A DNA stretch of 64,000 nt from a bacterium (GTDB lineage Bacteria > UBA10199 > 2-02-FULL-44-16 > JAAZCA01): contig CAXXGI010000003.1 of the NCBI GenBank assembly GCA_963674695.2, positions 1-64,000 of the forward strand, given 5' to 3'. The number at the start of each line of letters is the position of its first letter. Positions within the stretch are counted from its first letter, which is position 1. The notes beneath the pieces were generated by a model. The model was not told the origin of the DNA and did no database searches. It was given only the letters and a program-made list of their open reading frames with translations. The position numbers were made by a program, and so were the translations under genes. Positions 5,155 through 64,000 of the stretch are shown piece after piece.

Positions 5155-5171
5155 ACGATCTGCGGTTTTAC

Positions 5172-5220
5172 GAGTTACGAGTTACGAGTCACGAGTCACG
5201 AGTCACGAGTTACGAGTCAC
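5172..5220. repeat. Heptamer array GAGT(C/T)AC x7
   Basis: Directly visible tandem repeat ending just before ATG 5230. Confidence 0.95.
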
Positions 5221-5229
5221 GGGGGTCCA

Positions 5230-5661
5230 ATGATCGAGCTTTCCAAGCAGCACCTGGCCATCATGATGGAGGCGGGCTACGTCTACCTGGGCATGCGTCG
5301 GTTCAAGGAGTCCAGGGCCGTCTTCGAGGGCATTGCCGCCATCGCCCCCGGAAGTGAAATTCCACAGGTGGCGGTCGGCAATGTCGATTTTTGCGAGGGG
5401 AAGATCGCGCAGGCCATTCGGCGTTATACCAAAGCCCTCGCGATTGATCCGGCCAGCGTCTTTGCCAAGGTTTACTTGGGCGAGGCGCTCTATTTTTCCG
5501 GAAAGGTCGATGAAGCTACAGATTTGCTCAAAGGGGTGGCCAAGGGCGATCGCGGCGGTGCAGGTGAATTTGCACAGGTCCTGCTCGATGCCATCATTTC
5601 CGGCGCCGTTGCGCCTGCGGCAGGGGCGCACAGATCCGGAAAGGGAAAGAAATCATCATGA
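5230..5661 (+). CDS. TPR protein, T3SS chaperone-like
   Basis: Start moved to MIELSKQ (the upstream ORF extension is translated repeat); TPR-like helices; overlaps the sctJ start. Confidence 0.75.
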   Translation: MIELSKQHLAIMMEAGYVYLGMRRFKESRAVFEGIAAIAPGSEIPQVAVGNVDFCEGKIAQAIRRYTKALAIDPASVFAKVYLGEALYFSGKVDEATDLLKGVAKGDRGGAGEFAQVLLDAIISGAVAPAAGAHRSGKGKKSS

Positions 5662-6632: not shown

Positions 6633-6716
6633 GGGGTGACCTCTATCGCCCAATTGCTTTCCGATTTCTGATCGTGATGATGATGTTGATCCTGATGTTG
6701 ATTCCCGATTACCGGC

Positions 6717-7049
6717 TCACCTGAGCCGGTAGAGCATCCTGCTGATTCGATCAGCTCGCTCTTTGTTCTCCATAACACAACACGCCGGAATCAAGGAGAA
6801 GGCGGCAGCCAGGTCGATACAGGCCGACACCTCCGCAAGCGATGCCCTGGAGATCTGAAAGAAGCGCTTTCGTTCACCCTTGCCCAACCTCGCATTGCCC
6901 TCCGCCAAATTGAGCACGACCGAGGCCATGGCCCTTCTGAGCTGATCGACCAGATAGCCATAACCACGTGGCCATCCACAGACAAGCCCCCCGAGTTCCT
7001 TCGCCAATGTGATTGATTCCCGGTAACAGTCCAGTTTTTCATGTAACAT
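6717..7049 (-). CDS. Four helix bundle protein (IVP/Avd-like), type A
   Basis: MLHEKLDCYRE...DQLRRAMASVVLNLAEGN...RFFQISRASLAEV signature; GGGAGG SD. Confidence 0.9.
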   Translation of the reverse strand: MLHEKLDCYRESITLAKELGGLVCGWPRGYGYLVDQLRRAMASVVLNLAEGNARLGKGERKRFFQISRASLAEVSACIDLAAAFSLIPACCVMENKERADRISRMLYRLR

Positions 7050-7054
7050 TTTCT

Positions 7055-7132
7055 CCTCCCGTTGGTGGTTCATGATTTTTTTGCCCCCCAACCGGGTGAG
7101 GGGCAAAAAAATCATGAACCACCAACGGGAGG
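7055..7132. repeat. Perfect 33-bp inverted repeat with 12-nt loop between the divergent genes
   Basis: CCTCCCGTTGGTGGTTCATGATTTTTTTGCCCC / loop CCAACCGGGTGA / exact reverse complement; the arms contain both SDs. Confidence 0.95.
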
Positions 7133-7136
7133 CGTT

Positions 7137-7472
7137 ATGAATCATGAAAAACTGGACTGTTACCGGGAACTCATCATGGTTTCGAAGGAGCTCTGGGGGC
7201 TCATGAAGGGATGGCCGAGAGGCTCGGGCTATCTGGTCGATCAACTCAGAAGGGCCATATCGTCTGCTGTGCTCAACTTGGCGGAGGGCAACGGCAAGCG
7301 GGGGCAACCACGTGAACGAAAGCGCTTCTTTCAGATCTCGATGGGGTCAATCGCGGAGGTGGCAGCGGGCCTGGATCTGGCCGCCGCATTCTCCTTGATT
7401 CCGGCCAGGGTGCAGGAGGAGAACAAGGCGATACTGCGAGCGGCATACAACCGGATCAGGAGACTCTCCTGA
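7137..7472 (+). CDS. Four helix bundle protein (IVP/Avd-like), type B
   Basis: MNHEKLDCYRE...DQLRRAISSAVLNLAEGN...RFFQISMGSIAEV. Confidence 0.9.
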   Translation: MNHEKLDCYRELIMVSKELWGLMKGWPRGSGYLVDQLRRAISSAVLNLAEGNGKRGQPRERKRFFQISMGSIAEVAAGLDLAAAFSLIPARVQEENKAILRAAYNRIRRLS

Positions 7473-7673
7473 TCCGGTTCCGTTATCGGTGTATCCGTAT
7501 ATCCGATTCGGTCTCTCCCAATCGGTTATCGGTTTTCCGTTTTGATTCTATAATTTGCGTTTCACTCAGTGATGATATCACGTTGACATGACCTATTTGG
7601 TAGGTGCGTTGCAAAATGTTGATAATAAAGGGGAAAATAGATTGAAGGGTTCCTCTCTTTTTTCCCTCCTGAC

Positions 7674-8168: not shown

Positions 8169-8242
8169 AATATGAAAGATAAGAAATGAGAAAATAGGGA
8201 ATAATAGACTGCTGACAAAGGCATTTCGTACAATCGGAGTTT

Positions 8243-8311
8243 GTCATTCCCGCGAAAGCGGGAATCTCGCTTTTTACGGTACATCGAGATCCCCGCGTTC
8301 GCGGGGATGAC
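8243..8311. repeat. REP-like GTCATTCCCGC...GCGGG(A/G)ATGAC double hairpin
   Basis: Same family at 16365, 24984, 29323, 34664, 43420, 63518. Confidence 0.9.
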
Positions 8312-8338
8312 AAAGAACAAGGATTTGTCATCAACCTG

Positions 8339-9896: not shown

Positions 9897-9935
9897 CGGC
9901 AGTGAGAAGTGAGAAGTGGGAAGCGAAGTGTCATG

Positions 9936-9976
9936 CACGAGTCACGAGTCACGAGTCACGAGTCACGAGTTACGAG
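9936..9976. repeat. Heptamer array GAGT(C/T)AC x5
   Basis: Visible tandem repeat before ATG 9988. Confidence 0.95.
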
Positions 9977-9987
9977 GGTTTTAAAAC

Positions 9988-11052
9988 ATGGAAGGTCGAA
10001 TCGATAATAGACAGCGTATCGTCGCGGCCCTCGCCGTTCTCCGTGATGGCGACGAAGCGGCGGATGTCTTGAGCTACATGGACGATCATGATCGCGCCGC
10101 GTGTGCCCAGCTCATCGAGACCTATGCGGAGGAGGCCGATTGCGAGCATCGGATGCAGCAGCTGATCATGCAGATGGTTGCCTCCGAGCGCTTCACGACG
10201 TTGGCGGAAGTTCATCCGGCCTGGATCGTCGAACACCTCAAGGAGGAGTCGCCGCGTGTGATCGGCATCATTCTCCGTTCGCTGCCCTCCAAACACGTTC
10301 GCTTCGTGCTCGAGCGCATGCCACCCATGTTGCGCGCACAGGTGCCGCACATGGTGGAGTCGTTCGCGGTCTCTCCCGAGGTGCTCGAGATCGTGCGCAG
10401 TCGATTTGAGCGGCATTTTCGGTCCATGCCCATCAACCGCAGTGCCGAGAGCCTCTCGTTCGAACAGCTCTATTATCTGCGCGGGGAGGAGCTCGAAGAG
10501 CTTATCCGCGAGATCGGTCTGGACGAGCTCTCCATCGCTATCGGAGGTCTGAGAGAGGGTTCGCTTGCAGCGGTCTACAACCGTCTTGACCTGAAGGATG
10601 CCAAACGGCTCAAACGGCATATCGAGGGGGAGGAAGCGGTATCGCCCGCCCTGTTGCGGCAGGCGCGCATGACGATTCTCGAATCGGACGGCCGTCGGGT
10701 CGGTCCGGATCGGATGCTCTTCCAGATCGGGCTGACAGCGCTGGCGTATGCGTGTGAGCTGGAACACGATGAACTCGTCGGCATGCTTCAACAGAAACTC
10801 GAGCCGAGCGCAGGATATCGATTCAAGCGCTTGGTTGACGAGCGTCGCCTGCGTCCGAATGCTGTCGTCGCTCAGGAACGGCGGGAACGGATTCTGCGAT
10901 TGGCGGCGGCATTGGCACATGCCCATCGCATCGATGCCCATTGGACCCGCTTTTCTTCCGCTGATCTTTCCCCCATCCACGATGATGATGTGTTTGCGTC
11001 CCCGAGGGTCGAGGAGGAGACGGCAAGTAGCTCTTCCCCGCAGTTGGCATAG
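9988..11052 (+). CDS. FliG-like/SctK-position sorting platform protein
   Basis: EESPRVIGIILRSLP resembles the FliG EHPQ motif; lies between the rod gene and sctL. Confidence 0.6.
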   Translation: MEGRIDNRQRIVAALAVLRDGDEAADVLSYMDDHDRAACAQLIETYAEEADCEHRMQQLIMQMVASERFTTLAEVHPAWIVEHLKEESPRVIGIILRSLPSKHVRFVLERMPPMLRAQVPHMVESFAVSPEVLEIVRSRFERHFRSMPINRSAESLSFEQLYYLRGEELEELIREIGLDELSIAIGGLREGSLAAVYNRLDLKDAKRLKRHIEGEEAVSPALLRQARMTILESDGRRVGPDRMLFQIGLTALAYACELEHDELVGMLQQKLEPSAGYRFKRLVDERRLRPNAVVAQERRERILRLAAALAHAHRIDAHWTRFSSADLSPIHDDDVFASPRVEEETASSSSPQLA

Positions 11053-16990: not shown

Positions 16991-17035
16991 AAGAACCTCG
17001 ATTTCACGAGTCACGAGTCACGAGTCACGGATCTT

Positions 17036-17797
17036 ATGAACAAAAAGAAATTGATCATCGGTGGTGTGGGTGCGGCGGCATGCTTGGGCGTGAGTAGCGT
17101 TGCCTGGGCGCAAGCGGGCAGCGTCGGTGTTTCCAAACCGTTGGTGCTCTTGCTCGTACTCGCCTCACTCGCCATGGTTCCCTTCATCGTGATGATGGTG
17201 ACCTCGTTTGTGAAGGTTGCGGTCGTGTTGGCCCTCATCCGTAATGCGATCGGCACGCAGCAGGTTCCCCCAAATGTCGTCATCACCGGTTTGGCCATGA
17301 TCTTGACCATCTACATCATGGTTCCGGTGGCCTACGACGTCTATCGCGCGGCGGGGGCGACGATCAACCAGGGCACGAACCAGCCCCTGCTTTCGCAGGC
17401 GTCGATCAAGCTCCTGACCCAGGCGGTCGACGAGGGCAAGGAGCCCATCCGCAATTTTTTACTCAAGCACGTTCATGCCAAGGAACGCTCGCTCTTCTAC
17501 AACCTCTCGCTCAAGCTGCGTGTCAACGAAGCTGATCGCGAGGATATATCGGATAAGGACTTGATCAACCTCATCCCGGCGTTCGTCATCAGTGAACTCT
17601 CCGAGGCTTTTCAGATCGGGTTCATTATCTTTCTCCCGTTTCTGGTGATCGATCTGGTGATCGCCAATATCTTGCTATCGCTCGGTATGTTTCAGATCTC
17701 GCCGATCACGATATCGCTGCCGTTCAAGCTCCTGCTCTTTGTGCTCGTAAGCGGCTGGCACATGATCGCGAAGGGACTGATTTTGGGATACGTTTAG
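17036..17797 (+). CDS. sctR: Export apparatus SctR (FliP family)
   Basis: TSFVKV, RNAIGTQQVPPN, PAFVISEL, FLPFLVIDL, ISLPFKLLLFV. Confidence 0.95.
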   Translation: MNKKKLIIGGVGAAACLGVSSVAWAQAGSVGVSKPLVLLLVLASLAMVPFIVMMVTSFVKVAVVLALIRNAIGTQQVPPNVVITGLAMILTIYIMVPVAYDVYRAAGATINQGTNQPLLSQASIKLLTQAVDEGKEPIRNFLLKHVHAKERSLFYNLSLKLRVNEADREDISDKDLINLIPAFVISELSEAFQIGFIIFLPFLVIDLVIANILLSLGMFQISPITISLPFKLLLFVLVSGWHMIAKGLILGYV

Positions 17798-17799
17798 AG

Positions 17800-17946
17800 A
17801 CGGTGAACGGTGAACGGTGAACGGTGAACGGTGAACGGTGAACGGTGAACGGTGAACGGTGAACGGTGAACGGTGAACGGTGAACGGTGAACGGTGAACG
17901 GTGAACGGTGAACGGTGAACGGTGAACGGTGAACGGTGAACGGTGA
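17800..17946. repeat. Perfect heptamer array (ACGGTGA) x21
   Basis: 147 bp of perfect repeat, followed by short inverted TTCACCGT units. Confidence 0.98.
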
Positions 17947-18003
17947 AGTGTAACACGATTTTGCTTACGGTTCACCGTTTACGGTTCACCGTTTACGAAT
18001 CTT

Positions 18004-18270
18004 ATGCCTGAATATTTTATCGCGTTGGCCAAGCAGGCGCTCTTTCTTGTGCTGATTCTCACCGCACCCCCGGTGATGACGGCGTTGATCGTGGGACTCT
18101 CCATCAGCATCGTGCAGGCGACCACCCAGATCCAGGAGCAGACGCTCACCTTCGTGCCGAAGCTCTTTGCCATCGTCGCGGTCTTGGCCATCGGCGGCCC
18201 CTGGATGCTCGCCCAACTCATCGGATTCGCATCGTCGATCTACGGTTCCATTCCAACCTATGTACGCTGA
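18004..18270 (+). CDS. sctS: Export apparatus SctS (FliQ family)
   Basis: VGLSISIVQATTQIQEQTLTFVPK. Confidence 0.95.
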   Translation: MPEYFIALAKQALFLVLILTAPPVMTALIVGLSISIVQATTQIQEQTLTFVPKLFAIVAVLAIGGPWMLAQLIGFASSIYGSIPTYVR

Positions 18271-18474
18271 TCGCGAGTCGAAGGGTGTCATTCCCGCGGG
18301 AGTAAGCGGGAATCCCGATTGATCTCAGGGTATAAAGTGTTGTGCTCACTATTTGATCTGACAACAACGATAGAGCGTTATCACCCTACCTGACATCTAG
18401 AACCGAAACGGAGAGCCGGAAACCGATTGGGAGAGACTGAATCCGATTTCCGACCTCTCGATAACGGAACCGGA

Positions 18475-18810
18475 TCAGGAGAGTCTCCTGATCCGGTTGT
18501 ATGCTGCTCGCAGAATCGCTTTGTTCTCCTCCTGTACTCTTGCCGGAATCAAGGAGAATGCGGCGGCCAGATTTAGGCCCGCTGCTACCTCCGCGATGGA
18601 TCCCATCGAGATCTGAAAGAAGCGCTTTCGTTCACGCGGTTGCCCCCGCTTGCCGTTGCCCTCCGCCAAGTTGAGCACAGCAGACGATATGGCCCTTCTG
18701 AGCTGATCGACCAGATAGCCCGAGCCTCTCGGCCATCCTTTCATGAGCCCCCCGAGCTCCTTCGAAACCATAATGAGTTCCCGGTAACAGTCCAGTTTTT
18801 CATGATTCAT
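18475..18810 (-). CDS. Four helix bundle protein, type B
   Basis: Differs from 7137-7472 at only 2 aa. Confidence 0.9.
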   Translation of the reverse strand: MNHEKLDCYRELIMVSKELGGLMKGWPRGSGYLVDQLRRAISSAVLNLAEGNGKRGQPRERKRFFQISMGSIAEVAAGLNLAAAFSLIPARVQEENKAILRAAYNRIRRLS

Positions 18811-18813
18811 GAC

Positions 18814-18948
18814 GCCTCCCTTTCCGTTGTCGCTTTCCGTTTCGGTTGTCCGTTCTCCGTTTTCTGCCCCCCCGCCCGGGTGAAGGGGCAGAAAACGGAG
18901 AACGGACAACCGAAACGGAGAACAGCGAACAGCAACGGAAAGGGAGGC
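18814..18948. repeat. Central inverted repeat of copy 2 (35-bp perfect inner arms, 14-nt loop)
   Basis: Arms 18836-18870 and 18885-18919; loop CCCGCCCGGGTGAA; outer arms contain the SDs. Confidence 0.92.
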
Positions 18949-18952
18949 AAAG

Positions 18953-19285
18953 ATGTTACATGAAAAACTGGACTGTTACCGGGAATCGATCACTTTAGCG
19001 AAGGAGCTCGGGGGGCTTGTCTGTGGATGGCCACGGGGTTATGGCTATCTGGTCGATCAGCTCAGAAGGGCCATGGCTTCCGTCGTGCTCAACTTGGCGG
19101 AGGGCAATGCCCGGATGGGCAAGGGGGAACGAAAGCGCTTCTTTCAGATATCCAGGGCTTCGCTTGCGGAGGTATCGGCCTGCATCGATCTGGCCGCCGC
19201 ATTCTCCTTGATTCCGGCACGATGCGAAATGAAGAACAAAGAGAGAGCCGATCGAATCAGCAGAATGCTCTACCGGCTCAGGTGA
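18953..19285 (+). CDS. Four helix bundle protein, type A
   Basis: Differs from 6717-7049 at 4 aa. Confidence 0.9.
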   Translation: MLHEKLDCYRESITLAKELGGLVCGWPRGYGYLVDQLRRAMASVVLNLAEGNARMGKGERKRFFQISRASLAEVSACIDLAAAFSLIPARCEMKNKERADRISRMLYRLR

Positions 19286-19478
19286 GCCGGTCATCAGAAA
19301 TCAACATCAGGATCAACATCACCATCATTATAATCAAAAATCAGAAGACAATTGTGCAATCATATCGTAATCTCTTATTGCTCTTGTGCGATCATATCGT
19401 GACTACTGCATATAAAGCGATATCCCCGATGACTCCATTCGGGGATGACACACAACATAGCGCGCTTTTGAAGCAATT

Positions 19479-20384
19479 ATGGATGACTTCCTGGGACAGC
19501 TCGGTGTCAATGTCAACGTCACCTTCCACCTGATCTTCTTCTCTCTGGTATGGGTACGCGTGCTCATGATGGCGTCCGTGCTTCCCTTTATCTTCGGAAA
19601 GCCCCTGCCAAAATATGTGGTGGTCGCGGTCTCCATGGCGCTGGCGGTCTTCGTTTATCCCGCCATCGTGCCGAGTGTTCCGCCGCCCCTTCCGGAGGAG
19701 CTGATCGTCCTCGTCATGCTCTTCGTCAAGGAAGCGTTCTATGGCTTTATCATCGGTATGTCGGTTGCCGTGATCTTTCATGCCTTCGCCTCCGTCGGCC
19801 AGATGATCGATAACCAACGCGGCATGTCGATCGCGCGCATCCTGATTCCTCAGTTGAATCAGCAGGGCTCGCTCTCCGGCATCTTTCTCTTTCAGCTCGG
19901 CATCGTGCTCTACCTCGTCGGGGGCGGGCATCTCATCTTCTTCAACTCGTTCTTCATGAGCTTTACGGTCTTGCCCGTCATGGGGTTTCCGTCGGTCGGG
20001 CCGGGGCTCTATCCGCTGGTCGATCTCTTCATGAACTTGACCGGAGAGGTGATCTATATCGCCCTGCAGATGTCTGCCCCGGTCATCATCGCCATCTTCA
20101 TGGCCGACATCATCCTCGGCATCGCCAATCGCATCGCGCCGCAGATCAACGTCTGGATGTTGGGCTTTACGCTCAAAGGCTATGTGGGGATTTTGCTGCT
20201 CTTCATCGCCATCACGATGATCGGCGATCAGATGATCGTCTATTCCAAAAAAGCCAACCGCTACACCGACGAGGCGATCCGGCTCATGGAAGGCAAGGTG
20301 CCCGAGGACGCCCCGCAGCTCATCTCGCCCGAGGAGGGCCTGCCCAAGTCGGAGGAGGGCGTGCCCAAGGTCGAATCGTTCTAA
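19479..20384 (+). CDS. sctT: Export apparatus SctT (FliR family)
   Basis: GQMIDNQRG, GGHL, ADIILGIANRIAPQINV. Confidence 0.95.
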   Translation: MDDFLGQLGVNVNVTFHLIFFSLVWVRVLMMASVLPFIFGKPLPKYVVVAVSMALAVFVYPAIVPSVPPPLPEELIVLVMLFVKEAFYGFIIGMSVAVIFHAFASVGQMIDNQRGMSIARILIPQLNQQGSLSGIFLFQLGIVLYLVGGGHLIFFNSFFMSFTVLPVMGFPSVGPGLYPLVDLFMNLTGEVIYIALQMSAPVIIAIFMADIILGIANRIAPQINVWMLGFTLKGYVGILLLFIAITMIGDQMIVYSKKANRYTDEAIRLMEGKVPEDAPQLISPEEGLPKSEEGVPKVESF

Positions 20385-20451: not shown

Positions 20452-20733
20452 ATGATTGATATATATAAGTGGGATCCAGAGAAGAGCGCTGAAAACAAGC
20501 GAAAACACGGCATCTCGTTTGAGGAGGCCAGGGATACGATCTTTGAAGGAAAGAATATCCTGGCGTTAGGGATTGCGTATGACAAAGGGGAGTCCCGACA
20601 CGCAGTTATCGGAACACACAAAAAGCGGTATTATGTCGGTATCTTCACGGTTGTCGCAGGTATGATTCGCATCATATCGGTCAGGAGGGCGCGAAAGGAT
20701 GAAGAAAAACAAGCAAAAGATCGAGGACTTTGA
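20452..20733 (+). CDS. brnT: BrnT-family toxin
   Basis: WDPEKSAENKRKHGISFEEA...IRIISVRRA. Confidence 0.9.
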   Translation: MIDIYKWDPEKSAENKRKHGISFEEARDTIFEGKNILALGIAYDKGESRHAVIGTHKKRYYVGIFTVVAGMIRIISVRRARKDEEKQAKDRGL

Positions 20734-20950
20734 TGAGGCCTTCGACGAAGGGCGCGTTGCGGTCAATTTTCAGAACGGTGTGATGACGGAGGGGATGAGC
20801 CGCTTGGTAAAACTCCCGCCGCTGTCTATCCCCGCCTGGCTTGCTCTCGAGATCGACACCATCTCCAAGCTTCAGGCGAATTCACGTTCCTCCGTCATTC
20901 GCCAGCTGTTGGTTGAAGCGATCGAGGCAAAGCGCAAAGTTGCTTCCTGA
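20699..20950 (+). CDS. BrnA/CopG-like antitoxin
   Basis: Overlaps brnT; EDFDEAFDEG N-terminus and RHH-like C-terminus SRSSVIRQLL. Confidence 0.75.
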   Translation: MKKNKQKIEDFDEAFDEGRVAVNFQNGVMTEGMSRLVKLPPLSIPAWLALEIDTISKLQANSRSSVIRQLLVEAIEAKRKVAS

Positions 20951-29322: not shown

Positions 29323-29418
29323 GTCATTCCCGCCCCCGATTCAATCACTCGAGGGCAGGCTCCGGCGGGAATCTCGTTTTTTCGAGTACTTCGAGATTCC
29401 CGCTTTCGCGGGAATGAC
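29323..29418. repeat. REP-like element
   Basis: GTCATTCCCGC...GCGGGAATGAC. Confidence 0.85.
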
Positions 29419-29445
29419 GGCAAAATGACAGATTCTGTTCGACGC

Positions 29446-31218: not shown

Positions 31219-31295
31219 GTCGCCTCCCGGGGAAAATGGAGATCTTTTTTCCGATGAACCTGTAAAAAAGACCTCCATTTTCCCCTCGCGGCGAC
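31219..31295 (+). repeat. 77-bp hairpin repeat, copy c
   Basis: Same ends, different covarying stem, loop CCGATGAACCTGT. Confidence 0.85.
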
Positions 31296-31339
31296 AACGT
31301 CTTTACGAGTTACGAGTTACGAGTTACGAGTCACGGTCT

Positions 31340-32158
31340 TTACATCTTTCGCAACTGCTCCGCGCGTTTGGTGGCGACGCGGACGGTTTCTTCCATCGTC
31401 TTCCAGAACTTCTTCTTCTTCAGATGATTCATCGCGGCCCACGTGGTTCCCTTTTTCGAGGTGACGCGACGGCGAAGCTCCTGCGGCGGCAGATTGCTCT
31501 GAAACGCCATCTCCGCTGCACCCACGGCCGTCTGCAGCGTGAGCAGCGCCGCCATCTGATCGGTCAGCCCGAGCTTGCGTCCCGCATCCTGCATCGCCTC
31601 CATGAGGGCGAAGAAATAGGCCGGCCCCGTTCCGGAGAGCCCGGTGACCACGTCCATCAAGCGCTCTTCACGCACATCGACCGTCTTGCCCACCGCCTGG
31701 AAGATCTGGTGGGCGAACCGCCGGTAGCGCTCGGGCATGCGCGGGCCGCAGTAGATGGCGCTGATCCCCATGTCGATGACGGAGGGGAGGTTGGGCATCA
31801 CGCGGATGAGCTTCGGTTTCGAGCCCAGCATCTCGCGGAGACGACTGAAGTCGATGCCGGCGGCGATCGAGATGGCCAGATGGTTGCGCGTCATGGCCGG
31901 CTGGATCTGGGTGCAGACCTTCTGCATGTCCTGCGGCTTCACCCCCAGGATGATCGTTTCCGAGGCGCTCGTCACCGCAAGGTTGTTGCGCGTGGTGTGC
32001 ACGCCGTAGGTCTTCTCCAGAAACCGCACGCGCTTGGCCGTGCGCGCCGAGGCGATGATCTCGTAGGAGCGCACGAGGTTCGAGCGCAAGAGCCCCTTGA
32101 TGAGGGCCTCGCCCATGTTGCCCGCCCCGATCACGCCGATGATATAGTTGTCGCGCAT
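31340..32158 (-). CDS. proC: Pyrroline-5-carboxylate reductase
   Basis: IGAGNMG, ISIAAG, IRVMPN, TGLSGTGPAY, VTSKKGTT. Confidence 0.95.
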   Translation of the reverse strand: MRDNYIIGVIGAGNMGEALIKGLLRSNLVRSYEIIASARTAKRVRFLEKTYGVHTTRNNLAVTSASETIILGVKPQDMQKVCTQIQPAMTRNHLAISIAAGIDFSRLREMLGSKPKLIRVMPNLPSVIDMGISAIYCGPRMPERYRRFAHQIFQAVGKTVDVREERLMDVVTGLSGTGPAYFFALMEAMQDAGRKLGLTDQMAALLTLQTAVGAAEMAFQSNLPPQELRRRVTSKKGTTWAAMNHLKKKKFWKTMEETVRVATKRAEQLRKM

Positions 32159-32613: not shown

Positions 32614-32743
32614 GGGCACCTCTAAAAACTGAGATATTGATGTCACCTCCCGGGGAAAATGGAGACCTTTTTTCCGATAACCCTGTAAAAAAGGCCTCCA
32701 TTTTCCTCTCGCGGTGACTCATGAGAGGTTTTTAGAGATGCCC
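32614..32743. repeat. MITE-like unit with 16-bp terminal IRs enclosing hairpin copy d (32642-32718)
   Basis: GGGCACCTCTAAAAAC / GTTTTTAGAGATGCCC (15/16 match). Confidence 0.7.
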
Positions 32744-34663: not shown

Positions 34664-34884
34664 GTCATTCCCGCGGGTCCAAATCTGTCATTCCCGCGGG
34701 TCCAAATCTGTCATTCCCGCGAAGGCGGGAATCTCGATTGTCACGAAACATCGAGATCCCCGCCTTCGCGGGGATGACAAAGCCAAATCCATCCACATCC
34801 CCGCCTTCGCGGGGATGACAAAGCCAAGTTCATCGAGATCCCCGCTGGAGCCTGTCCTGAGCGTAGCCGAAGGGCGGGGATGAC
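34664..34884. repeat. Cluster of REP-like units
   Basis: Three tandem GTCATTCCCGCG starts and several GCGGGGATGAC ends. Confidence 0.9.
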
Positions 34885-41454: not shown

Positions 41455-41531
41455 GTCGCCTCCCGGGGAAAAACGAAACCATTTTTCCGATGAAGCTGTA
41501 AAAATGGCTTCATTTTTTCCCTCGCGGCGAC
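41455..41531 (+). repeat. 77-bp hairpin repeat, copy f
   Basis: Same ends; loop CCGATGAAGCTGT. Confidence 0.85.
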
Positions 41532-41569
41532 ACGATCTTCGGTTTCACGGTTCACGGTTCACGGATTAC

Positions 41570-41646
41570 GAGTTACGAGTTACGAGTTACGAGTCACGAG
41601 TTACGAGTCACGAGTTACGAGTCACGAGTCACGAGTCACGAGTCAC
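41570..41646. repeat. Heptamer array GAGT(C/T)AC x11
   Basis: Visible; runs into the GGAGG SD of the next gene. Confidence 0.95.
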
Positions 41647-41658
41647 GGAGGTTGTTCC

Positions 41659-43272
41659 ATGCCGCGATCGCTGCGCGATGAACTCATCGCGATCCAAAAA
41701 AAACTCTGGCGGTGGAATAAAGACCTGATCGATCATTCCGTCCTCGTCAAAGAGCCTGGTTTCGATGCGTATGAGCAGAACTACAAGCGCGCCGTGCACG
41801 ACTATGCGCGCGCTTCCAATCAGGATGAGATGATCGAGGCGGTGCTCCAGTCGAACGTCATCTTCGTCGGCGATTATCACACCTGCAATCAGTCGCAACG
41901 CTCGTTCCTGCGCATCCTCAAAGAGGTGGTGCGCCATGACCCGAGTGTGATGGTGGGGTTGGAGCTGTTGCACAAGAAGAGCCAGTCCTCCCTCGACGAG
42001 TATATGGACGGTGCCATCAGCGAGAAGACCTTCCTGCGTCGCATCAAGTTGGAGGAGCACTGGGTCTTCGATCTCTGGGAGAACTTCAAACCGATCTTCG
42101 ATTTTTGCCGCTACCACGGCACGGAGCTCTTCGCCATCGATGCGGCGCGGGTTGGTTCCAACGTGCGCACGCGCGATCGGAAGAGCGCGCATCTCATCGC
42201 TGATATCCTCGAGGAACACCCGGGGCGGCGTCTCTTCGTCTTCATCGGCGATCTGCACCTGGCTCCGAAGCATCTGCCCCGCGATGTCGCGATGGAACTC
42301 AAACGTCGCAATTTGCCCTTTCATCCGCTCATCCTTTTTCAGAACAGTGAAAACATCTACTGGAAGCTGGCCGAGGCCGGCGTCGAGGACTGGATCGAGG
42401 TGGTCAAGCTTCGCGATGGCAATTTTTGTCGGATGCATACGCCGCCGGTGGTGGAACAGCGCTCCTACCTCAATTGGCTGGAGCACGAGGAGGGGGAGAT
42501 CGACTATGCCGATGCCAAGTCGAGCTTCTTGGAGATTGTGGAGCGGCTCTGTGAATTTTTGGGGATTCGCCTCGGACGCGAGCGTGATGACGTGGAGATC
42601 TTCACCTGCGGCGATCTGAGTTTTCTGCGACAGCTGCGCGATCGGGGCGATTTTTCGAAGGATGAGATCGACATCATCAAACGTCAGATCCTGGCCAGCG
42701 AGAGCTACTACATAGCCCAGACCAAATTCGTCTATCTGGCGAACCTCTCCATCAATCACGCCGCTGAGGAGGCTTCGCATTTTATCAAGAGCGTCTGTTC
42801 GGGACCGGAAGAGCCGCGCTTCGTCGTCGATGCGTTCTATGCCAACTGCTTGCATGAGGCGTTGGGATTCTTCGGCTCGAAGGTCATCAATCATAAACGA
42901 AAGTGTTTTCACGAGCGCGATTTCAAGAGTCTGTTGTCCTATTTTCAGACGGTGCGCATCCCGGAGGAGCGTCGCCTCGAATACGAGACCGCGCACCTGG
43001 TCATGGAATACAAAAAACTCGAACGGAGCGGCAAGGCGCTTTCGCGCACGGAGATCTTTCGCAGCCGCATGGACCTGTTTCTCTCGGTGACGCATGCCAT
43101 CGGGTATATGCTCGGCGATCGCCTCTACTACGGCCTCATGTCCGGCGTGATCAAAAAACCACTTTTAAAGCAGCTCTTCTGCGACCCCTGGGCGGAGGAG
43201 GGCGATCCCGTCGAAGTCTACATGAACCTCTGGCAGAAGCTGCGCAAAGTGAAACTGCCGAGGCGAATGTAA
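41659..43272 (+). CDS. ChaN-like domain protein with long C-terminal extension
   Basis: VIFVGDYH, GLE, RDR, IGDLHL pattern; no signal peptide. Confidence 0.6.
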   Translation: MPRSLRDELIAIQKKLWRWNKDLIDHSVLVKEPGFDAYEQNYKRAVHDYARASNQDEMIEAVLQSNVIFVGDYHTCNQSQRSFLRILKEVVRHDPSVMVGLELLHKKSQSSLDEYMDGAISEKTFLRRIKLEEHWVFDLWENFKPIFDFCRYHGTELFAIDAARVGSNVRTRDRKSAHLIADILEEHPGRRLFVFIGDLHLAPKHLPRDVAMELKRRNLPFHPLILFQNSENIYWKLAEAGVEDWIEVVKLRDGNFCRMHTPPVVEQRSYLNWLEHEEGEIDYADAKSSFLEIVERLCEFLGIRLGRERDDVEIFTCGDLSFLRQLRDRGDFSKDEIDIIKRQILASESYYIAQTKFVYLANLSINHAAEEASHFIKSVCSGPEEPRFVVDAFYANCLHEALGFFGSKVINHKRKCFHERDFKSLLSYFQTVRIPEERRLEYETAHLVMEYKKLERSGKALSRTEIFRSRMDLFLSVTHAIGYMLGDRLYYGLMSGVIKKPLLKQLFCDPWAEEGDPVEVYMNLWQKLRKVKLPRRM

Positions 43273-43419: not shown

Positions 43420-43515
43420 GTCATTCCCGCCCCCGATTCAATCATTCGAGGGCAGGCTCCGGCGGGAATCTCGATTGTGACGGCACGTCGAGATCCCCGC
43501 TTTCGCGGGGATGAC
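43420..43515. repeat. REP-like element
   Basis: Near-identical to 29323-29418. Confidence 0.85.
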
Positions 43516-43581
43516 AACAGCCGGGTTTGTCATCACTCTCAACCCCCGAGCTTTCGCCCGGGGGTTTTCTCAGGTTCATCC

Positions 43582-56126: not shown

Positions 56127-56428
56127 CCTTTGCCGCCTGCGGCGGCTCATCCCCTGCCGCGGCAGTTTGCCTTGGGTATACTGGACCAAGTTTGCCCGCC
56201 TTGCCTACGAATCAGCTGACACGTGAGAGCAGTTGATCTGCAGTGTTCAGCGTGTCGTCGGTTCAATATAATCATCACATGCAGTAGTCACGATATGATC
56301 GCACAAGAGAAATAAGGGATTACGATATCATCGCACAACTGTTAGGTGATTGACTTGATAGTACAAGTACACTGATCGTGATGATGATATTGATCCTGAT
56401 GTTGATTTTTTGATTCCTGATTGCTGGC

Positions 56429-56673
56429 TCACCTGAGCCGGTAGAGCATTCTGCTGATTCGATCTGCTCTTTCCTTGTTCTCCATTTCACAACGTGCCGG
56501 AATCAAGGAGAATGCGGCGGCCAGATCGATACAGGCCGACACCTCCGCGAGCGAAGCCCTGGATATCTGAAAGAAGCGCTTTCTCTCTCCCTTGCCCGAC
56601 CGAGCATTGCCCTCCGCCAAGTTGAGCACGACGGAAGCCATGGCCCTTCTGAGCTGATCGACCAGATAGCCAT
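56429..56673 (-). pseudogene. 5'-truncated four helix bundle gene, type A
   Basis: Homology starts at GYLVDQLRRA. Confidence 0.85.
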
Positions 56674-56937
56674 CGACTGAAGTGGTGCGCCAAAGTGGTA
56701 AAATCTGACCACCACGAACGGCCTTTGTGACGGTCGCCTATGACCACTTTTCGACATCATCACTCATAGATCATCGAGATTTACCGATTTGGAGAACCGA
56801 TTGGGATAACAGAGACACCGAAACGGAAAAACGGACGATCGAATCCAATTAGCATCAACATCATCATCAGGTGGGCCCTGTCCGATAGATCGGCGTGGGA
56901 GATGTTTTGGATTGGCTATGGGTAAAAACACCGTCGT

Positions 56938-57165
56938 CTCAGAAGGACCATATCGTCTGCTGTGCTCAACTTGGCGGAGGGCAACGGCAAGCGGGGGCAA
57001 CCACGTGAACGAAAGCGCTTCTTTCAGATCTCGATGGGATCCATCGCGGAGGTGGCAGCGGGCCTGAATCTGGCCGCCGCATTCTCCTTGATTCCGGCCA
57101 AGGTACAGGAGGAGAACAAAGCGATTCTGCGGGCAGCATACAACCGGATCAGGAGACTCTCCTGA
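56938..57165 (+). pseudogene. 5'-truncated four helix bundle gene, type B
   Basis: Homology starts at CTCAGAAGG (LRR). Confidence 0.85.
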
Positions 57166-57346
57166 TCCGGTTCCGTTCTCGGTATATCGGCAATCGGATT
57201 CGGTTTCTCCCAATCGGTTTGCGGTTCTCCGTTTCGGTTCTAGATGTCAGGTAGGATGATAACGCTATATCGTTGTTGTCAGATCAAATAGTGATACACA
57301 TCACAAAAAGAAAACGCCCCTCTGATCGAGGAGCGTTTTCATCTTG

Positions 57347-63495: not shown

Positions 63496-63595
63496 GACGT
63501 GTGGGTGATTGAGGGGGGTCATTCCCGCGAAGGCGGGAATGACAGACGAAACGTTCCACGAATCACGAGTTACGAGTTACGAGTCACGAGGTGTT

Positions 63596-64000
63596 ATGGA
63601 AGGACGCAGTCTCGGTGCCATTCTTTTGGAGACGACCTCCCTGACGGAGGAGCAGCTCGAGCAGGCGCTGGCGGTGCAACGCGAGCGCGGCATCAAGCTC
63701 GGCGAGGCACTCGTACAGCTCAAGTTCCTGCGCACCGAGGATGTGCTCAAGGCGCTCTCCATCCAGCTGGGTTTTCCCTACGAGAACAAGATCGAGGTCG
63801 AGGAGATCGCCAACGATCTCATCGGGGCGCTTCCGATCAACTATGCCAAGCAGAACGAGATTCTTCCCCTGCGCAAAGAGGGGAACGTACTCTTGGTCGC
63901 CATCGCGGATCCGACCAACTTCTATGCCCTCGACGATCTGCGTCTGCTCTTCGGTTGCGACATTCGGCCGATCATCGCCAGCTCCTATGAGATCGTCAAC
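63596..64000 (+). CDS. gspE: T2SS ATPase GspE, N-terminus (runs off the window; absent from the ORF track)
   Basis: Manual translation MEGRSLGAILL...EQLEQALAVQ...KLGEALV...VAIADP; follows gspD. Confidence 0.85.
   Translation, partial: MEGRSLGAILLETTSLTEEQLEQALAVQRERGIKLGEALVQLKFLRTEDVLKALSIQLGFPYENKIEVEEIANDLIGALPINYAKQNEILPLRKEGNVLLVAIADPTNFYALDDLRLLFGCDIRPIIASSYEIVN

Follow-up and report, generated by a model that had tools for sequence, protein, structure and literature searches.

What could be the means by which a unit of about 1.07 kb, encoding two small proteins and no transposase, has come to occupy several places of one bacterial genome, one of them between sctS and sctT of a type III secretion locus? 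The unit in question, hereafter the cassette, lies in a window that comprises the first 64,000 nucleotides of contig C3 (C3:1-64000) of a genome (G000) of 3.03 Mb in three contigs (C1-C3), which has a G+C content of 58% and is rated 100% complete. Its reference copy, designated copy 2, begins with TG, ends with CA and consists of two head-to-head genes, A and B, which encode four-helix-bundle proteins of the family PF05635 and are separated by a central palindrome. An earlier reading of this DNA from its letters (the sequence-only reading) had described a transposase-free mobile cassette having the A/B pair as its only cargo, a description borne out by inverted ends, 7-bp duplications, deletion derivatives and a target that is restored upon excision. 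That the cassette is a mobile element with inverted ends and target duplications can be regarded as close to certain; that its movement requires the PF05635 proteins, the A/B pair being its own mobility module, is a premise to which a probability of roughly 45% is assigned.

Alignment of the copies together with their flanks shows that homology stops sharply at imperfect 25-nt inverted repeats beginning with 5'-TGCAGT (B side, TGCAGTGCTCACTATTTGATCTGAC; A side, TGCAGTAGTCACGATATGATCGCAC), the flanks being unrelated at every site. The TG...CA termini that had been read at 18338-19410 are directly followed on both flanks by TATAAAG (18331-18337 and 19411-19417), and those of copy 3 by CATCACA; both of these different 7-bp repeats, already noticed from the letters, are exact, and the discrepancy of about 4 nt noticed between the B-side ends corresponds to the 4 nt by which the end is shorter in copy 3 than in copy 2. 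In 200,000 random site pairs taken from the same genome, identity of 7/7 at fixed positions is reached with a frequency of 1.8e-4, and of at least 6/7 with a frequency of 2.8e-3. The sequence-only reading had staked its case on defined ends and flanking duplications in the other copies as well, and this holds in part: the ends are defined and, among the five copies that have both of them, three are duplicated, two with 7/7 identity and one, a gene-less copy, with 6/7 (ATTTATC/ATTTACC), but in a fourth copy the repeat CTGAAT attains 6/7 only with a 1-nt offset and is weak, being expected by chance at 7e-2, and the fifth has no duplication. The duplicated target words are AT-rich in this 58% G+C genome. 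Of the features considered for miniature inverted-repeat transposable elements (MITEs) and mobile insertion cassettes, terminal inverted repeats, a 7-bp duplication of constant length and no internal transposase are found in the cassette, and it is from the TG...CA ends and the fixed-length duplication that a DDE-type integration may be surmised.

In-silico removal of copy 2 and of one TATAAAG leaves a spacer of 128 nt that aligns end to end with the intact 74-nt double hairpins, resembling repetitive extragenic palindromic (REP) elements, found at 8242-8315 and 34709-34782; the double hairpin being restored in this way, copy 2 appears to have been inserted in the loop between the two hairpins. 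The order sctR, sctS, sctT is the same in 12 of 12 other genomes of the family and the sctS-sctT junction is empty in every one of them, the spacer measuring ~15-170 bp, as estimated from tblastn coordinates, versus 1208 bp here. Empty alleles, the search for which had been recommended from the letters, are thus represented by these relatives, but the contigs of three public runs that may correspond to the source sample revealed no allele with a single TATAAAG, no joint skipping 18338-19410 being listed there. In these contigs, a junction in reads being counted only when at least 31 nt lay inside the element, the left junction is bridged, 34 nt into the element, and the right end is reached by 29 nt only; a joint from 18560 to 19215 matches an internally deleted copy located elsewhere in the genome.

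The extent of the spread was determined by whole-genome BLASTN, which returned eight copies or large fragments, the copies being 84-94% alike, and four small fragments. The three window copies read from the letters (6645-7550, 18338-19410 and 56280-57298) are indeed present, in both orientations, and the comparison recommended at that time yielded five further places; at least five sites of the genome have been colonized by the cassette. Every copy lies between protein or tRNA genes, as the sequence-only reading had maintained, and none is found in rRNA; the genes surrounding the copies of the window are, according to Pfam, sctJ, sctR, sctS and sctT, and copy 3 adjoins a tRNA-Thr gene, downstream of the tRNA terminator. 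No larger family emerged from a self-comparison of the genome, the cassette being the largest multi-copy family among repeats of at least 250 bp. Copy 1 has no target duplication and is truncated at both termini, by some 60 and 50 nt. In copy 3 about 264 nt (56674-56937) stand in place of the 5' halves of both genes, and the same rearranged form is represented by the copies at C3:796350 and C3:245464, one of the three having a 7/7 and one a 6-bp duplication; two of the four small fragments are solo A-side ends. As a separate matter, a 75-nt repeat (56683-56760) forms part of the replaced centre of copy 3 and is also present, single and in tandem, at ~10 other places of the genome (e.g., C1:519134-519382, C1:520739-520941 and C3:157369-158433).

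The internal organization of copy 2 is summarized in Table 1, together with the other copies and related genes. The cassette is nearly palindromic: when one half is inverted, BLASTN shows it to be 79% like the other over 700 nt. The divergent A/B pair and the central palindrome recognized from the letters proved correct insofar as both open reading frames (ORFs) belong to PF05635 and no other ORF has a family match. When single-stranded, the palindrome is predicted to fold as one hairpin (-73.1 kcal/mol, z -17.8), and the B-side arm is complementary to the palindrome's left arm, which places gene B between inverted word arrays. A scan for sigma-70-like promoters found no site in 18200-19560 versus 1.0 expected, and a scan of Rfam found no family over threshold, generic microRNA hairpin models matching the palindrome below threshold only.

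Table 1. Position of the cassette components in copy 2, of the other copies and of single PF05635 genes (plain numbers are window coordinates)
Feature	Position	Strand	Basis or remark
REP-like double hairpin, left half, split by copy 2	18287..18319	.	in-silico excision alignment
Target duplication TATAAAG, left copy	18331..18337	.	7/7 vs 19411-19417, chance 1.8e-4
B-side terminal inverted repeat TGTTGTGCTCACTATTTGATCTGAC	18338..18362	+	copy alignment; fuzzy and profile searches match cassette ends only
B-side arm, AAACGG/CCGA short words	18398..18467	.	inverted pairs I6, I8; conserved among copies
Perfect 15+15-nt hairpin spanning gene B stop codon	18468..18498	.	pair I9; conserved in all copies
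Gene B, 111 aa, PF05635 four-helix-bundle protein	18475..18810	-	Pfam 49.9 bits; PDB 2GSC E 6e-7; dN/dS 0.02-0.09 (4 copies)
Central palindrome (135 nt) between both start codons, covering both ribosome-binding sites	18814..18948	.	pairs I3-I5; folding
Gene A, 110 aa, PF05635 four-helix-bundle protein	18953..19285	+	Pfam 70.5 bits; model pLDDT 96.4; dN/dS 0.04-0.13
Short hairpin CCGGCTCA GG TGAGCCGG spanning gene A stop codon	19274..19291	.	sequence reading; conserved among copies
A-side arm, ATCA-type hexamer words, word count variable between copies	19292..19345	.	direct repeats D8, D9; extra ATCAAC/AATCAAC in other copies
Subterminal repeat of end motif TTGTGCAATCATATCGT	19352..19368	.	D5; 32 nt inward of terminal copy; end profile matches same place in three copies
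A-side terminal inverted repeat (reverse complement TGCAGTAGTCACGATATGATCGCAC)	19386..19410	-	copy alignment, fuzzy and profile searches
Target duplication TATAAAG, right copy	19411..19417	.	7/7 vs 18331-18337
REP-like double hairpin, right half, split by copy 2	19422..19449	.	in-silico excision alignment
Copy 1	6645..7550	-	both genes intact; ~60 and ~50 nt missing at two termini; abuts sctJ stop codon; 84% identity over 964 nt
Copy 3	56280..57298	-	both ends present; opposite orientation to copy 2; CATCACA at 56273-56279 and 57299-57305
Full-length copy	C3:635203-636202		BLASTN; no flanking duplication
Copy with replaced centre as in copy 3	C3:796350-797336		BLASTN
Copy without A-side end	C2:896580-897510		BLASTN
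Internally deleted gene-less copy, 406 bp	C1:1028098-1028508		first ~220 nt joined to last ~190 nt; both ends kept; 6/7 duplication
Partial copy with replaced centre	C3:245464-246186		BLASTN
Single PF05635 gene	C2:124076-124435		between sensor kinase and response-regulator genes
Single PF05635 gene	C2:239995-240309		inside operon
Single PF05635 gene	C1:748889-749242		between tRNA genes

The assignment of the two proteins to PF05635 is based on scores of 70.5 bits for A and 49.9 bits for B, the Pfam gathering cut-off being 33.8, and the closest solved relative of both is XCC0516 (PDB 2GSC), the structure of which has five chains; in the available portion of PMC4990558, citing Lin 2006, XCC0516 is described as a homopentameric toroid. 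The model computed for protein A from 23 sequences consists of four helices with a predicted local distance difference test (pLDDT) of 96.4, and a Foldseek search with this model placed 2GSC first, with a template modeling score (TM) of 0.87, and gave a TM of 0.85 for BT_0352 (2RLD). The relationship with Avd, the accessory protein of diversity-generating retroelements (DGRs) to which the sequence-only reading had likened the pair, is upheld at the level of the modeled fold, the TM being 0.78-0.80 both with Avd alone (4DWL) and with Avd in the DGR reverse-transcriptase complex (8UB7). A and B resemble Avd also in being small and basic, but the identity amounts to 11-12%, they occur as a pair, and the cassette has neither a reverse transcriptase nor a template or variable repeat. 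Residues D35, R39, A40, S43, L46, E50, G51, S70 and E73 are invariant in the 23 aligned sequences and N47 is nearly so; R39, S43, N47 and E50 constitute the R-x3-S-x3-N-x2-E motif, given as the conserved motif of PF05635 in the part of PMC3936711 at hand.

Among the four intact copies, which have dS values of 0.12-0.49, the ratio of nonsynonymous to synonymous substitutions (dN/dS) amounts to 0.04-0.13 in gene A and 0.02-0.09 in gene B. Judging from these ratios, genes A and B are under strong purifying selection, and their low values in four redundant copies mean that both proteins have been kept functional. Gene A is 65% identical to gene B of its own cassette and 55-61% identical to the A-type orthologues, which suggests gene conversion between the arms. 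In the tree of the A and B proteins 16 of 23 inner branches are open and one row is in the wrong frame; signature residues of the A type and of the B type are conserved in relatives up to class level.

If no transposase ORF lies between the cassette ends, so that the unit is not an autonomous DDE insertion sequence, could a partner elsewhere in the genome provide the enzyme? A fuzzy search of the whole genome with the ends (allowing at most 6 mismatches in 25) found the cassette termini, plus one chance match inside a gene at C3:692022, and a profile of 11 termini produced 13 matches at E ≤0.02, all of which are cassette ends or the subterminal repeat, the next match having an E of 0.47. The transposase with matching ends for which the sequence-only reading had proposed to search did not, therefore, come to light, the end profile matching nothing but cassette termini. 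The candidate partners were rejected: the rve gene is a truncated fragment of 192 aa unrelated to the cassette, the right end of the DDE_Tnp_1_4 element, as defined by comparison with a partial second copy, does not resemble the ends of the cassette, and the only Transposase_mut gene has no detectable inverted ends. The other transposase genes, consisting of two IS110 and three Y1_Tnp copies, have no ends like those of the cassette, and DDE_3 gave no match in the host genome, where ISL3, IS1595, IS66, Tn3 and others were not searched. Nor does the cassette behave as a REP element served by a REP-associated tyrosine transposase (RAYT), since it has inverted termini and duplications, the Y1_Tnp genes are separate from it and the REP-like hairpin is its target. 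In the closest relative (G008), the only genome outside the host in which the ends were searched, the cassette ends are present and no autonomous element with the same ends was found; its cassette has the two ends on different contigs, flanked by AATAAAT and GATTAAT.

Relatives as distant as the class level likewise have the head-to-head PF05635 pair, together with the central palindrome and flanks rich in words, in several diverged copies per genome, and among 80 loci of a public genome collection the 8 with such pairs all come from the cassette's lineage, their records being labelled Myxococcales, Bdellovibrio, Pseudomonadota or simply "bacterium". PF05635 matches are present in 27 of 41 related genomes, the richest being G016 (20), G011 (17), G007 (12), G009 (12), G018 (11) and G040 (9). 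In the draft genomes G016, G011, G018 and G040 neither rve nor DDE_Tnp_1 has a match, and Transposase_mut, DDE_3, ISL3 and IS1595 have none in these four drafts and in that of G007; the genomes richest in rve and DDE_Tnp_1, G020 and G002, have one and zero PF05635 matches, respectively.

A second kind of element was encountered in the 6.4-Mb genome of a member of the Verrucomicrobiota (G041), where eight loci have a unit of ~540 bp, 85-94% alike, made up, in this order, of an inverted end of ~25 nt, a TAATCC run, one PF05635-like ORF, a GGATTA run and the second inverted end. The end motif, different from that of the cassette, has 53 matches versus 0 for a reversed control, and the ends pair only as gene-less miniatures of 127-190 bp or as elements of 510-590 bp whose single ORF is PF05635-like. 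Dozens of these miniatures are seen in G041, having the same inverted ends and TAATCC/GGATTA runs as the PF05635-bearing elements. Flanking direct repeats of 7-13 bases are exemplified by TTGAACCTCAGA (12/12) and CTAGGGCA[G/A]CGG (11/12). Twelve end pairs were excised, eight of them without a gene (331 bp long in one case, 127-166 bp in the other seven) and four with an ORF; direct repeats of 7-12 matching bases with one mismatch stand near both ends in six of these pairs, one pair is borderline and five have none, these counts having no random control. Most of 20 further ends pair at short range into miniatures or ORF-bearing units, and the 39 ORFs of at least 220 aa within 3 kb of these 20 ends are ordinary cellular genes, with no transposase family among them. 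The dN/dS of the G041 gene is 0.36-1.12 among five intact copies, a sixth, frame-shifted, being excluded, and these near-neutral values suggest that the gene decays there after insertion.

The premise that A and B are mobility factors of the cassette draws on several of these observations: no partner with matching ends exists in a genome rated 100% complete; PF05635 is the sole cargo on unrelated end families in two phyla and belongs to the largest member of a miniature family; the cassettes are numerous in genomes without detectable DDE transposases; and both genes are under strong constraint here. The cassette may move by a so far undescribed mechanism. By analogy with Avd, which is pentameric and binds nucleic acid and polymerase, A and B would form a toroid capable of recognizing the repeated words and the end motifs in the two arms and of pulling the ends together; the cutting and joining with a 7-bp stagger would be the work either of A/B or of an unlinked host enzyme recruited by this pair, and gene-less and gene-damaged copies would move in trans.

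Several considerations weigh against such a role. The PF05635 proteins were found to have no catalytic motif from any of the known families of transposases, recombinases or nucleases, and the function of the family is given as unknown in those parts of PMC4990558, PMC11270868, PMC3936711 and PMC10053308 that could be consulted. The movement of copies with broken genes implies that the ends alone suffice in trans, which fits an unlinked transposase equally well, and copies that are only 84-94% alike point to old insertions, so that a partner element could since have been lost. The length of the duplication differs by family, being 7 bp here versus ~8-13 in G041, and a single catalytic family would more naturally produce one length. 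Since the genomes of the relatives are drafts, 78-96% complete, the absence of transposases from them is not proven; insertion sequences often fail to assemble in drafts and only six DDE families were searched. In the more distant twin cassettes of the relatives G007 and G016 no inverted ends or duplications could be defined, homology fading in ATCGC-type word arrays. Finally, the near-neutral evolution of the G041 gene implies that the strong constraint on A and B is not general, and the latter could reflect a benefit to the host.

The most serious competitor, although its chances are put distinctly below even, is that the cassette is a passenger, i.e., a mobile insertion cassette or large MITE whose ends are recognized by a DDE transposase encoded elsewhere, which also makes the 7-bp duplications; the source of this enzyme would be a lost element, an unassembled replicon or past co-residents. 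TG...CA ends, an AT-rich target duplication of fixed length and repeated subterminal motifs are products of classical transposases, and the anatomy of the cassette, with its TG...CA termini, AT-rich 7-bp duplication and subterminal end motif, is just of this kind. Such a passenger would account for the duplications that flank gene-less and gene-damaged derivatives and for the age of the copies; DDE genes (DDE_Tnp_1_4 and Transposase_mut) are present in the genome, and the near-neutral evolution of the G041 gene fits a cargo. The families of IS21, Tn552, Mu and Tn7 have TG...CA ends, several subterminal transposase sites, an rve-type transposase and usually an ATPase. The cassette resembles them in its termini, in the end motif repeated inside, albeit in one arm, and in the short fixed duplication; it differs in that these families encode an rve transposase, whereas the host's only rve match is the fragment mentioned above. 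Mobile insertion cassettes, of which MIC231/IS231 of Bacillus cereus is an example, and MITEs likewise have inverted ends, a duplication of fixed length, passenger genes without a transposase and deletion derivatives, but they share their ends with an autonomous insertion sequence, and none with the cassette's ends exists in the complete host genome, nor was an autonomous element seen beside the 20 G041 ends. It also counts against a passenger that one and the same cargo family rides alone on independent ends in two phyla, as the largest member of a miniature family, that four PF05635-rich relatives have no match to six DDE families, and that A and B are each subject to strong constraint in four redundant copies. 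As cargo, the proteins could possibly handle the hairpin-rich transcript so that the invaded operon works, or serve in defence or addiction.

An RNA or single-strand hairpin intermediate, which would make the cassette akin to the ORF-bearing intervening sequences of rRNA, is considered improbable. By this route, the transcript would be bound by the Avd-like proteins, copied by a reverse transcriptase in trans and inserted at staggered breaks or replication forks. The similarity of the modeled fold to Avd within the DGR reverse-transcriptase ribonucleoprotein (8UB7), the near-palindromic structure with its very stable hairpins and the presence in the intervening sequences of the same gene family, with tandem heptamers beside the ORF (PMC4990558, as far as available), can all be accommodated, and the genome does contain a reverse-transcriptase gene. 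However, the latter (RVT_1, C2:707195-708148) is the only one, a tandem repeat encoding HPSI repeats divides it between two frames, and it belongs to a DGR-like locus ~700 kb into another contig, no RVT_1 match being found in or near the cassette; furthermore, the defined inverted termini and the constant 7-bp duplication are unlike those of known bacterial retroelements, and neither poly-A nor variable 5' truncation is seen among the copies. The DGR-like locus itself (C2:705789-708148) consists of a gene with an FGE-sulfatase domain, a small ORF and then the split reverse-transcriptase gene, with no Avd gene seen beside it.

That the copies are immobile products of segmental duplication or recombination flanked by coincidental 7-mers can be given hardly any credence for, in spite of the full copy at C3:635203-636202 without a duplication and of copy 1 without ends, two exact duplications at the predicted positions (1.8e-4 each) and one of 6/7, homology that ends sharply at the inverted repeats between unrelated flanks, and an excision that restores a target structure at a junction empty in 12 of 12 relatives all speak to the contrary.

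Returning to the A/B pair as a mobility module, to what extent could this role apply to the whole family? It is tentatively proposed, at somewhat less than even odds, that PF05635 proteins act as the mobility proteins in a class of small transposable elements, widespread yet undescribed, that have no conventional transposase; the branches of this class would be the twin cassette, the single-gene elements of Verrucomicrobiota with their miniatures, the heptamer-armed operon cassettes and the ORF-bearing intervening sequences of rRNA, with Avd as a domesticated member. PF05635 has had no known function since its discovery inside rRNA intervening sequences in 1993. In those parts of the publications that were accessible, PF05635 ORFs are reported in rRNA intervening sequences (PMC4990558, PMC11270868), PF05635 genes are reported as stray genes in cas operons (PMC3936711) and a relationship of the proteins with Avd is described (PMC10053308), and intervening sequences that bear an ORF appear as sporadic and long regarded as selfish, a mobility role for the ORF having been proposed in 1993 (PMC4990558). 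The full-text literature searched, which did not extend to subscription journals, yielded no account of elements that combine PF05635 genes with inverted ends and target duplications.

The intervening sequences of 23S rRNA (Coxiella burnetii, Leptospira), with their S23p/PF05635 ORF, share the protein family with the cassette and also, according to the portion of PMC4990558 available, a gene within inverted hairpin-forming flanks and variable tandem short repeats by the ORF. The host offers parallels: gene B is enclosed by inverted word arrays, and three single PF05635 genes are located at gene junctions, each between inverted arrays of the heptamer type. On the other hand, the cassette lies between protein or tRNA genes and has two head-to-head genes, and its TG...CA inverted termini and 7-bp duplications are not reported for intervening sequences in that portion of PMC4990558.

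For PF05635 genes, the locus presents unusually clean signatures of transposition, with defined inverted ends, 7-bp duplications that are exact, derivatives arisen by deletion, a target that excision restores and sites that are empty in relatives, in a complete genome where no matching transposase was found. If the proteins do drive the movement, they would represent a new transposition machinery that connects the origin of Avd with the intervening sequences and the dispersed heptamer hairpins; otherwise, one must ask for what reason non-autonomous elements that are independent of each other carry, in different phyla, one gene family. In either case, a type III secretion operon tolerates a hairpin-rich insertion of 1 kb between sctS and sctT.

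Some further observations concern the repeats and neighbouring genes of the host. A second, diverged twin PF05635 cassette with a palindrome of its own is found at C3:919065-919820; just one of its flanks bears pyrimidine-rich words, which lead into five or six GCGATG units spaced 11 nt apart, and the cassette adjoins a putative 5S rRNA gene, identified by sequence reading. The sctR-sctS spacer (17797-18003) contains ~20 tandem ACGGTGA units, a 20-nt loop and inverted copies (TTCACCG), and represents a gene-less heptamer hairpin of the same kind as the arrays around the host's single PF05635 genes. The 74-nt double hairpin split by copy 2 (GTCATTCCCGC...GCGGGAATC, spacer, GATCCCCGC...GCGGGGATGAC) belongs to a family with members at 8242-8315, 29349-29422, 34709-34782 and 43446-43519 of the window and half-sites across all three contigs. 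The Y1_Tnp (IS200-like) genes, encoding 249 aa, are present in three copies that are 79-85% alike (C1:749672-750421, C3:279280-280122 and C3:473817-474586), one of which adjoins a single PF05635 cassette and a tRNA cluster, and may serve the REP-like hairpins. Directly downstream of sctT, within the secretion locus, lies a BrnT-family toxin gene (20452-20733, 77 bits) followed by a small overlapping ORF (20699-20950). Tandem heptamers of the type CACGAGT/TACGAGT are located directly upstream of start codons at many junctions (5169-5241, 9922-9994, 16991-17049, 31290-31348, 41539-41667 and 63550-63608), often preceded by an 85-nt hairpin element (31219-31303, 32642-32726 and 41455-41539).

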